This document shows positions 18,844 to 25,517 of a DNA stretch of 64,000 nucleotides, piece by piece; positions within the stretch are counted from its first letter, which is position 1; each line of letters opens with the position of its first letter. The stretch is taken from positions 4,096,001-4,160,000 of the forward strand of contig OY970194.1 in assembly GCA_963708075.1 (NCBI GenBank). Direction: 5' to 3'. The stretch comes from Sedimentisphaerales bacterium (lineage in GTDB: Bacteria; Planctomycetota; Phycisphaerae; Sedimentisphaerales; Anaerobacaceae). The notes under the pieces are model-generated. The model was not told the DNA's origin and searched no databases. It saw only the letters and a program-made list of their open reading frames with translations. The position numbers and the translations under genes are program-made.

Positions 18844-21800
18844 ATGTCAGTTTGCGTAGAAGCGCATATTAGTCCGCTTCAGGTTCCCGGCAATCTGATC
18901 CACATGCTGCGCCGCCACGCCGAGGAACGTCCGGATCAGCCTGCATTTATTCATCTGCTCGATGGCCAGTCTAATCAAGCGGTCCTGACGTACGCCCAGT
19001 TCGACCAGCGGGCCCGCGCCATCGCTGCCCACTTACAGAACATGGGCCTTACCGGCCGGCAAGTGCTGTTGGTGTATCCGCCCGGCCTTGACTTCATTAC
19101 GGCCTTCTTCGGTTGCCTGTACGCCGGTTGCGTGGCGGTGCCAACCTACCCACCGCGTCGCCATCGCATATTAGATCGCTTCCACGCTATCGCCGCCGAT
19201 GCCGAGGCCAGTATCGCCTTGAGCACGTCTTGCGCCATAGCTCAGTTCCAATTCATGATTGGGCACAAAAACGGTCAAGCAGCCGCTTCCTCCCAGATAC
19301 GATGGTTAGCCACAGACGAGATTCCAGATGACTTGGCCGAGCAATGGAGCGAACCTGCCATCGCTTCCGACACGCTTGCTATGCTTCAGTACACCTCAGG
19401 CTCGACCAGCCAGCCAAAGGGCGTCATGCTCAGCCACGCGAACCTCATTGATAACACCCGTACCATCCTCCATGCTTTCAGGGTGCAGCCCGAGGACAGT
19501 GGCGTGTTCTGGCTGCCCACGTACCATGATATGGGGCTGGTGGGCGGCGTCCTTATCGATGTGTTCGCCGGTGCCACAAACGTCCTCATCTCACCAACCG
19601 ACTTCCTCCAGAAACCCATCACCTGGCTGGCCGCTATCAGCAAATACCGGGCAACTATCTCCGGCGGACCCAATTTCGCCTACGACCTTTGTGTCCGCAA
19701 TATCACCGACGAGCAACGAGCCACCCTTGACCTTTCCTCCTGGGCACTGGCCTTCATCGGCGCCGAACCCATTCAGCCCGCAACGCTCGAACGCTTTGCC
19801 GCCGCATTTGCCCCCTGCGGCTTCAAACCCAGCGCCTTTTATCCCTGCTACGGTTTGGCGGAGGCGACGCTCATGGTCAGTGGCGCGCGACGTGGCAGCG
19901 GCGCGACCGTACAAGCCTTCCACGACACGGCGTTGACCGAAAATCATGTCGAGCCTGTGCCCAACGGTAATGGCCAGGCTCGTCGCCTGGTAGCCTGTGG
20001 ATCGCCCGTCGACACTATGCGAGTGGTAATTGTCAACTCAAAGACCCACACTGAGGCCGCCCCCGGCTGCGTGGGTGAAATCTGGGTTGCCGGAGCGTCA
20101 GTCGGCCAGGGGTACTGGCACAACCCCCGCCTGACCAGCCGTTCCTTCAACGCCCACCTGAGCAACACGGGCGAAGGCCCGTTCTTACGCACGGGCGACC
20201 TGGGTTTCATGAGCGATGGCCAGCTTTATGTCACCGGCCGGCGGGAAGACCTGATCATCGTCCGCGGCCTGAATCGCTATCCACAGGATATCGAGGCCAC
20301 GGCTCGCATGAGTCACCCGCTGCTGGAAGTCGGCTACGGGGCCGCTTTTGCCGTGGATGACCACGGCAGTCAGCGACTCGTTCTGGTACAGGAGGTCAAG
20401 CACAACGGGAAGATGGATTTGAAGCTGGTGCTGGATGCAGTTCGCATGGCGGTACTCGATGAGCATGACTTGGCACTGGACACCATCGTGCTGGTACGAA
20501 GCGGCACGATTCCCAAAACCTCCAGCGGCAAGGTACAGCGTCACGCCTGTCGCGAGGCATTTCTCCGTGGAGAACTTAAGACCCTTGCCGAATACAGCGG
20601 CCTGATGGTCGAGAATGCTGACCCCAGCGACACCATCAGCCCCGGCATCAAAGGCATCGATGCTTCCATTCCGCATCCCGCACCGAATTCTTCGCAATTA
20701 TCCGCTTTTACTGCCATCTGCCAGCACGCCCACGCCTTGGCAGGTGCGGCTCTGCCCGCCCTGACACCCAATACACCCATCATCGCTCTGGGCCTCGATT
20801 CGCTGCAGCGTCTGGAACTCGTTGCTGCGATGGAGAAGACCTTCGGTGGCTATATGCCCGATGCGGCGTACTGCCAGGTGCAGACATTGGGAGAGCTGGC
20901 TCAGGCCGTGCAGAAGCACCTGATCGATGGTCCCAAGTCAGACGTCCCAGCTGGCCAGATTCTGCCTGAACACTATGACTTCGCCCAGTTCCCCGAATAC
21001 GCTCAGTTGAAGCGTCAAGAGCGAATGCTGCTGGCAGTGACCGGTGACAATCCGTATTTCCGTGTTGACCAAGGCGGAGCCGGAAGCGCAGCATGCATCG
21101 ACGGGCGTCAGCTCATCAATTTCTGCGTCTATGACTATGTCGGCATGTCCCACGATCCGGAGGTCGCCGCTGCCGCCAAGTCTGCGATAGACCGCTACGG
21201 CACCGGCGCCGGCGCCAGTCGGTTGATATCCGGCGAAAAGCAGGTGCATCGTGATTTGGAGCAGGCCCTGGCCGCGTTTCTGAATGTCCCTGCTGCTATC
21301 GTGTTCGTCTCCGGCCATGCTACCAATGTCACCACAATCGGTCACCTGCTGGGACCGGACGATCTGATCCTCCATGACACTCTGGCGCACAACTCGATTA
21401 TCCAGGGCGCCGAGCTTTCCGGCGCGACCCGTCGAGCCTTTGCCCATAACGACTGGATGGCGATGGATGCGGTGTTGTCCGAAGGTCGCCACCGATATCG
21501 CCGCGTACTGATCGCCATCGAGGGCGTGTACAGCATGGACGGTGACTTCCCCGAACTTCCACGTTTTGTGGAACTTAAGAAGAAGCACAAGACGCTGATA
21601 CTGGTCGATGAGGCGCATTCGCTGGGAACCATGGGGCCAACCGGCCGGGGCATCGGTGAGTACTGGGGCGTAGCCCGGGCTGACGTCGATCTGTGGATGG
21701 GCACGCTCTCTAAGTCGTTAGCCAGTTGCGGCGGATACATCGCCGGCTCGGTCGAACTGGTCGAATACCTCAAGTACACAGCCCCAGGGTTTGTCTACAG

Positions 21801-22195
21801 CGTGGGCATTTCCCCACCCAACGCCGCGGCGGCTCTGGCATCGCTAATGGTCCTGCAGCGTCAGCCGCAGCGTGTCCACCTGTTGCACGAGTTGTCAGCG
21901 TTGTTCTTGAAACTGGCCGGGGAGAGAGGTCTGGACACAGGCTCTGGCTGCTGGTACACCCGTGATTCCGGTAATCGTAGGTAGCTCGGCCAAGAGCCTG
22001 CGCCTGTCAAACGCTTTGTTCCAGCGAGGCATTAACGTACAACCAATTCTGTATCCCGTCGTGCCCGAACAGTCAGCCCGACTGCGGTTCTTCATCACGA
22101 CCAACCACACCCGGGCACAAATCCACACCACGGTGAGTGCCGTTGCCGACGAACTCAAGGCACTTGACCAACACGGCGGCCTGATGGGCGGGTGA
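18844..22195 (+). CDS. Fatty acyl-AMP ligase - ACP - alpha-oxoamine synthase (SPT/BioF-like) fusion; one-base frameshift near 21946
   Basis: [50 protein letters not shown] domain: YSMDGD, DEAH, GTLSKS; removing one G gives [14 protein letters not shown]...ARLRFFIT. Confidence 0.9.
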
Positions 22196-22221
22196 CCCGT
22201 GAAACCCATGAAAGATGTCCC

Positions 22222-24146: not shown

Positions 24147-24423
24147 CGCCGACCGGGATGCGTTACGACTGAACCAGGGTCGCGCGCTGGCAGTGGATGC
24201 GTAAACGGCGGATGCCACGACCCAGCGCCCGCCACGGACTGAACTGGAGCGTGCCCCAGATGCTGAGCATGGCGTGAAGCGGGCGCAGCGACGCCTTCGG
24301 CCAGACGCTGCAGTAGCGGTTTTCGGACCGGGGCCGGAAGCGAGTCTTGAAGTGATAGATGCCCGGCGTATCAAGGATGAAGTTTAGATAGTGGTGCGCG
24401 ATCCGGATATAGGTGTGGATCAG

Positions 24424-25517
24424 TCATGGCAGCATCCTGCCCGGGTCGCCGGGAGTTCCGAGAACCCCTGGTATAGGAGCAATACGCTCAAAGCCACCCC
24501 GCTTGGCATACCATTGGGCCGTTTCGCGCAGGCGTTCAGCCAGGGCGGCCGCGGGCGACCAGCTCAGGTGTGTGCGAGCTTTCGCGGATGAGCACATCCA
24601 CGACCCGGCCAGGGCTTCAGTCATCTTGTCGCTGTTCACCCAAGCGGGGCGCTGCCGGATCCGCCCTATCGCGTCACCGCAGAGCCCAGCCAGTCGCACC
24701 AGTGGCCCGGGCAGGTGTACTACGACGGTGCACGCTTCTTTCCCAATGCTGTGGCCATTACCTGTCCGAGTTCGGCGTATGTCGGATAGTCATCCGCTGC
24801 CATGAAGTAGATGCCTTGCCCAGGCGATCCATTGGGGTGCAGGCGCTCGCCTTTCTCGGCTGCAAGGAGCAAACCCTCGACCAGGTCGGCTACGTGGATC
24901 AGCGAGAAGCATCGCTCGTCCAGACCCGGCACAACATGGATACCCCAGCGTGCGATCGGCCGGAACATTTTAAGCATGCCCCTGTCACCGGGACCAAAGA
25001 CCATCGGCGGACGTACAATACTGATCGGCACCGCTGTGGCATATCTGGCTGTGGCCTGTTCTCCGGCCAGCTTGCTGCAACCGTAAGCTGAAACAGGCAT
25101 CGGCGCATCGCTTTCTACCCGAGGTCGGCCAACGGCGCAAGGCCCCGCTGCGGCCAGCGAGGACACCACTACTAACACCGGCTTGTCAGTGCAGTCAGCG
25201 CAGGCGGCAGCGACGGATTCGATACCACCTGCGTTCACACGCAGGAAATCGTCTGTCCGCAGCGCCTTCGTCAGCCCGGCCAGGTGGAACACAATACCGG
25301 CCTGCGACACCGCCAGTGCCCGTCCAATGCTGGCCCCATCGGTCACATCGCCAGTGACCAACTGAGCGCCGGCCGACCTCAGATCCTCGATGCACGAGGT
25401 GGCTCGCACCAGACATGACACCCGATCGCCAAGCTCGGTCAGCCGTTGTACCAGGTGCCGCCCGATGAAGCCACTGGCCCCTGTCACCAGCACGGGTTTT
25501 GGAACCCTATTGTTCAT
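24424..25517 (-). CDS. NAD-dependent epimerase/dehydratase (extended SDR); one-base frameshift near 24730
   Basis: VLVTGASGFIG, HLAG, VSSLAA, YGCSK, RPPMVFGPGD, HVADL; C-terminus (...LRETAQWY) continues in the 24424-24699 frame. Confidence 0.88.

Follow-up and report, generated by a model that had tools for sequence, protein, structure and literature searches.

Here we describe a predicted lipid biosynthesis cassette in a window of 64,000 nucleotides from a Sedimentisphaerales bacterium (assembly GCA_963708075.1, contig OY970194.1, positions 4,096,001 to 4,160,000); coordinates are those of the window unless a locus is named. The central gene (18844..22195, plus strand) encodes a fusion of fatty acyl-AMP ligase (FAAL), acyl carrier protein (ACP) and pyridoxal phosphate (PLP)-dependent oxoamine synthase (AOS) domains, and it is accompanied by a tandem-GNAT N-acyltransferase of the YghO/bCerS family (23019..24146, plus strand) and by an extended short-chain dehydrogenase/reductase (SDR) resembling CerR/epi (24424..25517, minus strand). 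Sequence comparison suggests that the cassette probably makes a serine-derived ceramide-type membrane lipid. The supports for this reading are domain content, family relations and gene co-occurrence, from which we infer the substrates, the product and the order of the steps. A first-pass annotation, made from the letters of the window alone, had proposed a planctomycete host, in agreement with the RecA protein, which matches those of two Sedimentisphaerales genomes at 83% and 79% and those of three others at 64-66%.

The fusion gene and its reading frame

As assembled, the fusion open reading frame runs from 18844 to 21984 (1046 codons) and carries AMP-binding (residues 22-425), PP-binding (625-689, with Ser653 in a GLDSL motif) and Aminotran_1_2 (756-1022) domains. 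The C-terminus of the AOS resumes in the +1 frame and reaches a stop at 22193-22195, giving a protein of 1116 aa across a one-base error near 21942-21944, with His849 and the PLP lysine, Lys957, the latter within GTLSKS. Both the three-domain architecture and the repaired length of about 1116 aa had been put forward in the first-pass annotation and are borne out: 109 of the 120 best AOS-region relatives, drawn from proteins of 575-1831 aa, are 1080-1170 aa long, and nearly all of them list the same domains. The N-terminal part is assigned to the FAALs because fatty acyl-AMP ligase models outscore the top acyl-CoA ligase model (462 versus 173 bits in NCBIfam, all below the family cut-offs) and a PP-binding domain follows; it is 33% identical to AasR of E. 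coli. The host genome has a single match to a phosphopantetheinyl transferase (PPTase), which is the candidate for modifying the ACP.

Two further frameshifts, neither mentioned in the first-pass annotation, lie near 24725-24731 in the SDR gene and near 15312 in an ABC permease gene. Four public runs were aligned to 14000-25600 to check the frames. The SDR and the permease are in frame in near-identical bridging contigs of run X1, with one other letter in 1059 and in 505 letters, and runs X2 and X15 are also without the indel at two of the three sites. The extra base near 21942-21944 is missing from X1, from two X2 contigs and from a bridging contig of ∼96% in X15; the X1 evidence at this site is a single contig of depth 4.4 that reaches just 20 letters beyond it and is not a bridging record, leaving the ∼96% relative in X15 as the sole one. 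Because near-identical public contigs are without the indels, we read all three frameshifts (15312, 21942 and 24731) as assembly errors. Contigs of a ∼95% relative in X15, an RNA run, span 18783-25524, and these were not used as evidence of transcription, which contigs cannot show.

Family of the condensing domain

In an IQ-TREE phylogeny of 35 sequences, the AOS joins a clade of carrier-tethered AOS proteins that includes L085, our stand-in for PfSgaB of Pseudomonas fluorescens MYb115, with support of 100/100 (Shimodaira-Hasegawa-like approximate likelihood ratio test/ultrafast bootstrap, SH-aLRT/UFBoot). This clade is joined to canonical serine palmitoyltransferase (Spt) at 96.5/99, away from BioF, Kbl and HemA, so that the phylogenetic check against BioF proposed with the first-pass annotation places the domain outside the BioF group. 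A FastTree phylogeny of 121 domains, from which L001, L002, L008, L120, L122, L125 and L127 were dropped as duplicates, has the same shape; L082 contained no AOS. The domain is 55% identical to L085, whose motif strings agree by eye with the printed PfSgaB sequence (PMC12134224, Fig. S6). It is 30-34% identical to canonical Spt (30-33% to that of E. coli). Membership of canonical Spt was rejected on the sister-clade position in the tree and on scores below the cut-offs of all three Spt models, and the PLP domain is thus of the tethered SgaB type and not of the Caulobacter type from which the first-pass annotation had argued for a ceramide pathway.

PfSgaB converts L-serine to 3-ketosphinganines and almost excludes alanine and glycine (PMC12134224). 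The top plasmid matches of the AOS, at 48-56%, are AOS genes that follow type I polyketide synthase (PKS) genes in Pseudomonas and Sinorhizobium loci of the capsule type. Its lysine motif, GTLSKS, occurs in 118 of the 120 relatives and differs by one change from GTFSKS, the motif characteristic of SPT (PMC10196870); PfSgaB also has GTLSK, and GKA or GKG is found at this motif in three BioF rows, three Kbl-clade rows (two printed) and one HemA-like row. Searched by sequence against the PDB, the intact domain matches Sphingobacterium SPT best (E 7e-67), and it keeps that enzyme's Tyr27/Phe28, Ser81, His138, His213 and Lys244; at Ser81, Kbl has Val and the HemA-like row Thr.

Several observations on related domains were made in passing. 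When the truncated AOS (20938-21981) was searched against the PDB, eukaryotic LCB2/SPTLC2 scored 198 bits and bacterial SPT 194 bits. Other planctomycetes carry canonical Spt-like domains within long frames of ∼780-1030 aa (L108:1-3000, G181, G251 and G278), a second and independent kind of fusion. Cyanobacterial clusters (L045:289-8818, also L042, L046 and L048) combine two FAALs, aspartyl beta-hydroxylase-family genes and an ACP with an AOS from this same clade and with a B12 radical SAM gene, and it is possible that they encode a sphingoid route.

A two-residue signature in the substrate pocket

The fusion branch is supported at 100/100 and is marked by Y763-D764-Y765 and G790-A-S-R, where SgaB-type enzymes have YNY and SASR (27 versus 39 rows); YDY and GASR are both present in 117 of the 120 relatives. 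The two sites align with Ser53 and Ala79 of Sphingobacterium SPT (SmSPT), the equivalents of human SPTLC2 Asn177 and SPTLC1 Cys133, which take part in a network surrounding the substrate side chain (PMC10196870). The Asp of the subclade is the same residue as in the human SPTLC2 N177D change, with which deoxysphingolipids are raised in patients (PMC7480917). All three BioF rows have Asp at the first site and Gly at the second, and Asp by itself is also seen in SgaB-type L084 and L133 and in the HemA-like row.

The N-acyltransferase and reductase genes

The long GNAT gene of the first-pass annotation is intact, and its product is 29% identical to YghO of E. coli BL21 over 379/380 aa (E 2e-68 pairwise, 7e-60 against the genome). 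YghO and ECD_02852 of this strain are the homologues of the Caulobacter acyltransferase (CC_1154) and reductase (PMC9386255, Fig. 9), and with YghO as the reference the GNAT passes, over its full length, a published homology filter for bCerS and CerR (E ≤1e-30, coverage ≥50%; PMC11334938). The comparison with the bCerS family that had been suggested for 23019-24146 therefore came out positive. The search of solved structures returned no GNAT relative at E ≤1, and NCBIfam has no model for the GNAT or for YghO. In the subclade of the fusion the GNAT adjoins the Spt-type gene at 21 of 26 loci; in 301 sampled genomes of the phylum, the 30 best loci with canonical-Spt-like genes have the GNAT family within 1.5 kb of that gene in 23 cases and the SDR family in 11.

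The SDR belongs to the extended type (PF01370, E 2e-33), is split near 24725-24731 by the apparent assembly error and begins straight with its Rossmann motif. It is the top host match of both epi queries (E. coli and Sphingomonas) and shares SSLAA and YxxxK with them; an intact relative is 26% identical to ECD_02852, the E. coli epi, at E 3e-23. Its earlier designation as CerR-type can be kept in part, as a weak link at the level of the family only.

Extent and distribution of the cassette

From the best 80 of 577 matches we collected 71 loci, comprising 26 of this subclade, 42 others and three (L012, L022 and L026) that end before the AOS and are excluded from the counts that follow. The median locus length was 19.1 kb in the subclade and 14.0 kb in the others. 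Subclade loci contain a GNAT (21), an SDR (21), an ABC-2 ATPase and permease (17) and a GT-B protein (15), and less often an MprF C-terminal domain (5), PAP2_3 (4), DUF4833 (4), PKS (4), PAP2 (3) or radical SAM (2); the 42 others contain a GNAT in two and an SDR in two, and neither the ABC genes nor GT-B in any. Because the exporter and the GT-B gene co-occur with subclade loci, the real unit in the window begins at 14040, with both upstream of 18844, where the first-pass annotation had begun a gene set that included DUF4833 and that is redrawn here.

The unit opens with the DrrA-like ATPase of an ABC-2 exporter (14040..15005, plus strand; TIGR01188 at 268 bits, below cut-off) and its permease (15002..16115, plus strand), which is split near 15312 by an apparent assembly error and whose homologue in L019 has ABC2_membrane_3. 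A radical SAM/SPASM protein (16254..17243, plus strand; PF04055 and PF13186), accessory at two of the 26 loci, precedes the GT-B-fold protein (17311..18270, plus strand), a candidate head-group transferase or sugar-nucleotide epimerase. The closest folds to the structural model of the latter (pLDDT 92.7) are UDP-GlcNAc 2-epimerases (Z 18.2, root-mean-square deviation 3.6, 276 aligned), followed by TagF/TarL (Z 15). Its motifs QEG (41 of 58 aligned rows) and KLHP (36 of 58) resemble the D/E-D/E-G and HP motifs of bacterial sialyltransferase and TagF-like GT-B enzymes (PMC2169525), although the best folds are epimerases. Of the 16 long relatives scanned, five carry a fused LPG_synthase_TM, desaturase or cytidylyltransferase part, which suggests that the family is tied to lipid decoration, whatever its reaction may be.

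Downstream of the fusion, the DUF4833 protein (22222..22788, plus strand; PF16117, E 9e-32) is intact and has, by eye, a lipoprotein-like N-terminal signal ending in AAAGC, in line with the lipoprotein of the first-pass annotation; an atlas search with it returned DUF4833 clusters only. It was rejected as a core part, being present at only four of the 26 subclade loci, and is treated as accessory. A relic of 63 codons (22831..23022, plus strand), overlapping the start of the GNAT, is the 3′ end of a second GT-B copy, with 88% to the C-terminus of the L015 GT-B and 77% to the GT-B of the window itself. The GNAT is 90% like that of L015, whereas against the GNATs of most of the nearest relatives of the fusion the figure is 73-74%. 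The sequences indicate that the cassette in the window is a mosaic, the relic pointing to recombination between two cassette versions. Carriers of the cassette are scattered over planctomycetes, NC10, Deferrimicrobiaceae and a betaproteobacterium.

Of the 26 subclade loci, 23 carry one or more genes of the GT-B, PAP2-type or MprF-C kinds, and this supply of head-group-type neighbours suits a lipid with a free C1 hydroxyl. A stand-alone gene for the MprF C-terminal (aminoacyl-transferase) domain lies in the cassette at L029:15643-17034 and also in L013, L017, L027 and L031, and is a candidate maker of the lysine-ceramides reported in PMC11334938. PAP2_3/PAP2 membrane genes, candidate phospho-head-group transferases, adjoin the fusion at L009:6830-7783 (also L007, L008 and L010) and L019:11393-12232. 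A PKS resembling PfaA and a further GNAT of the YghO family lie near the cassette in L007:3-5384, L016 and L020, and could supply unusual acyl chains.

The upstream motif

A repeated motif, GTAGGGTTAYACCCCA (18697..18714, plus strand), a predicted and likely regulator site, lies 147 bp before the start of the fusion. Allowing ≤1 mismatch, the 7.5-Mb genome contains 14 copies, eight of them in the window, and 3 Mb of shuffled sequence contains none. The first-pass annotation had read it as a stress-regulon motif and the pathway as stress-induced; the motif is real, but it precedes the fusion at only one of the 71 related loci (L014, at the same 147-bp distance), close relatives having other sequences there, and on that count it was rejected as a part of the cassette, while stress induction stays a conjecture. 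The other copies sit among genes for CsbD-like, DUF883, DUF2934 and small membrane proteins, and it is plausible that the fusion belongs to a general-stress-type regulon in this strain, which would not be a property of the cassette. The copies cluster in three or four islands (4919-31137 of the window; G000:C1:68600-81400, 2062500-2062900 and 5129419) that also hold ferritin-like genes, and several island genes are duplicated (for example, 5921-6136 and 10976-11191). At the left edge of the window (200-4350, together with L140:11497-12171) are CheB/CheR-like genes, with an apparent frameshift near 2860-3180, a sensor kinase and a NarL-family response regulator, the last of these, with the kinase, being a candidate regulator of the motif.

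A proposed pathway and its known counterparts

In the pathway that we propose, the FAAL would adenylate a free long-chain fatty acid and load it onto Ser653 of the ACP, once this has been phosphopantetheinylated by the PPTase of the host. The PLP domain, through Lys957, would then catalyse a decarboxylative condensation of the acyl-ACP with L-serine that yields a 3-ketosphinganine, the GNAT would attach the N-acyl chain and the SDR would reduce the 3-keto group. A head group might be added by the GT-B protein (in relatives, an enzyme of PAP2 type or MprF type could do this), and transport of the lipid would fall to the ABC-2 system.

There is already a known counterpart for every one of these activities. 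With PfSgaA/SgaB/SgaC of P. fluorescens MYb115 (PMC12134224) the cassette shares the AOS clade, motifs including GTLSK, an acyl chain delivered on a carrier and, as predicted here, the 3-ketosphinganine product. In contrast, SgaB stands alone and is fed by an iterative PKS (PMC12134224), whereas the AOS of the window is fused to FAAL-ACP, which takes the place of the iterative type I PKS partner in the definition of SgaAB clusters (a PKS lies in the fetched flank of 4 of 26 loci), and two pocket residues differ. SgaC, a classical SDR represented by a stand-in from L085, gave no BLAST match with the SDR of the window, and the Sga cluster, which is without bCerS in the L085 annotation, leads to sphinganines and not to ceramides, whereas the window has the GNAT. 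Caulobacter and E. coli BL21 have the same five activities in AasR-AcpR-Spt together with epi (CerR) and aca/YghO (bCerS) (PMC9386255, PMC11087976), but there they reside on separate proteins, whereas in the window the first three share one chain and the AOS comes from the sister clade. The E. coli locus neighbours LptFG where the cassette has the ABC-2 exporter and GT-B, and the CerR of Caulobacter is periplasmic, whereas the SDR of the window starts directly at the Rossmann motif. A third relative is the PKS, AOS and SDR set of a Sinorhizobium meliloti capsule locus (L084), whose AOS is of the same clade and 48% identical; it is PKS-fed and has capsule export and KpsF neighbours, none of which is found in the cassette. 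We take these capsule-locus genes to be the ones named RkpG/WcbT.

Spt-like genes have also been published from planctomycete metagenome-assembled genomes: clade B of the 'Spt-like' proteins of the Black Sea, from 138 such genomes of Planctomycetota (PMC11334938), resembles the window in consisting of distant Spt homologues, some within longer proteins, with bCerS and CerR close by. The main text of that paper, as available, describes no FAAL-ACP fusion (the terms 'fused', 'fusion', 'AMP-binding' and 'acyl carrier' are absent), and the literature covered, from which subscription journals fall outside, yielded no paper on a FAAL-ACP-AOS fusion or on an SgaB-type enzyme coupled to bCerS/CerR. 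The contribution of this locus is a defined subclade with an exporter, a GT-B protein and a two-residue pocket signature.

Weighing the alternatives

A number of points weigh against a serine-derived ceramide product. The AOS is sister to the known Spt clade rather than nested within it, and it differs from SgaB-type enzymes at the two pocket sites. The Spt models NF047599, NF047600 and NF047603 score the intact domain far under their cut-offs (309/640, 270/500 and 213/670), which E. coli and Bacteroides Spt controls exceed, and its top NCBIfam model is bioF (TIGR00858; 354, cut-off 426). L085 likewise falls under the Spt cut-offs with bioF as its best model, and since this stand-in for SgaB fails them too, these failures are no argument against SPT activity of the fusion. 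The comparisons with PfSgaB and with Caulobacter bCerS and CerR were made through stand-ins (L085 and the E. coli proteins). The SDR misses the 1e-30 filter for CerR (PMC11334938) at E 3e-23 with the E. coli and 5e-24 with the Sphingomonas epi, and the GT-B protein, whose modelled fold is nearest to epimerases, is only a candidate for a head-group role. The loci are kin and their counts are not independent events. Finally, the genes have a patchy distribution (2 of 61 kin genomes for the GNAT and 2 of 24 genus genomes for the AOS, own genome included), a pattern that fits an accessory trait better than a core membrane pathway.

The pocket signature raises the question of the amino acid. On an alternative account the pathway is unchanged and L-alanine is preferred, or readily taken, by the AOS, which would make the cassette a dedicated 1-deoxyceramide route. 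In its boldest form, two changes at the counterparts of the human neuropathy sites SPTLC2 N177 and SPTLC1 C133 would have switched the tethered condensing domain of a mobile, self-contained cassette from serine to alanine and made it a dedicated 1-deoxyceramide synthase. Asp and Gly are fixed in the subclade at the equivalents of the two human residues, N177D raises deoxysphingolipids in patients (PMC7480917), the three BioF rows, of alanine users, share both residues, and the anoxic water of the Black Sea is rich in 1-deoxyceramides, whose producers have been assigned by correlation only (PMC11334938). However, L084, L133 and the HemA-like row have Asp too, so that it is not alanine-specific, human N177D acts within a heterodimer and gives leakage only, and neighbours such as PAP2_3 (4 of 26), PAP2 (3 of 26) and MprF-C (5 of 26) suit a C1 hydroxyl; we regard the switch to alanine as unlikely, if with a real chance of being correct. 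FAAL starters are typical of secondary metabolism, and the product could instead be a non-sphingoid aminolipid or small lipid metabolite, made from a different amino acid or in the form of a glycosylated amino alcohol, and secreted by the ABC-2 system. The mosaic gene order, the patchy, mobile spread over the four groups named above and the DrrAB-like exporter at 17 loci would fit such a product, but the GNAT and SDR families are companions of canonical Spt, the closest characterised AOS is serine-specific and Ser81 is kept where the glycine users Kbl and HemA-like differ, and we consider it rather improbable.

The remaining accounts concern function in this strain and in biotin synthesis. In the assembly, three of the eight genes have a broken frame, and the relic at 22831-23022 is a fragment, as would be expected of decaying genes in a cassette that is inactive in this strain, yet near-identical X1 contigs are without all three indels and X2 and X15 concur at two; the X1 contigs, only 4-6 deep, may come from the source sample itself, but an assembly error would be indicated in that case too, and genuine frameshifts are very improbable. 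A BioWF-like enzyme making 8-amino-7-oxononanoate is suggested by the top NCBIfam model, by many database names and by the absence of any other BioF-like gene in the host, whose one other AOS is a Kbl. Such a biotin role was rejected on the tree position outside BioF and the score under the bioF cut-off; the neighbours are lipid genes, and the host genome, 92.8% complete, has no bioD match and no bioA match over cut-off. We give it next to no credence and return to the serine-derived ceramide as our preferred product.

Implications

As we read it, the cassette is a hybrid of two known bacterial sphingolipid routes. A condensing enzyme of the SgaB type, which has so far been demonstrated only together with a PKS and with no N-acylation step, is here linked to an arm for loading fatty acids and to finishing enzymes of the Caulobacter type. 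The fixed two-residue difference from SgaB is a natural experiment on the choice between serine and alanine. If the alanine switch were true, the cassette might be where the orphan 1-deoxyceramides found in anoxic waters and wetlands come from. The runs that carry it are labelled wetland and freshwater sediment, labels that rest on shares <0.5. On a practical level, standard Spt models miss the fusion and databases name it BioF, and the sphingolipid capacity of planctomycetes and other anaerobes would therefore be under-counted.

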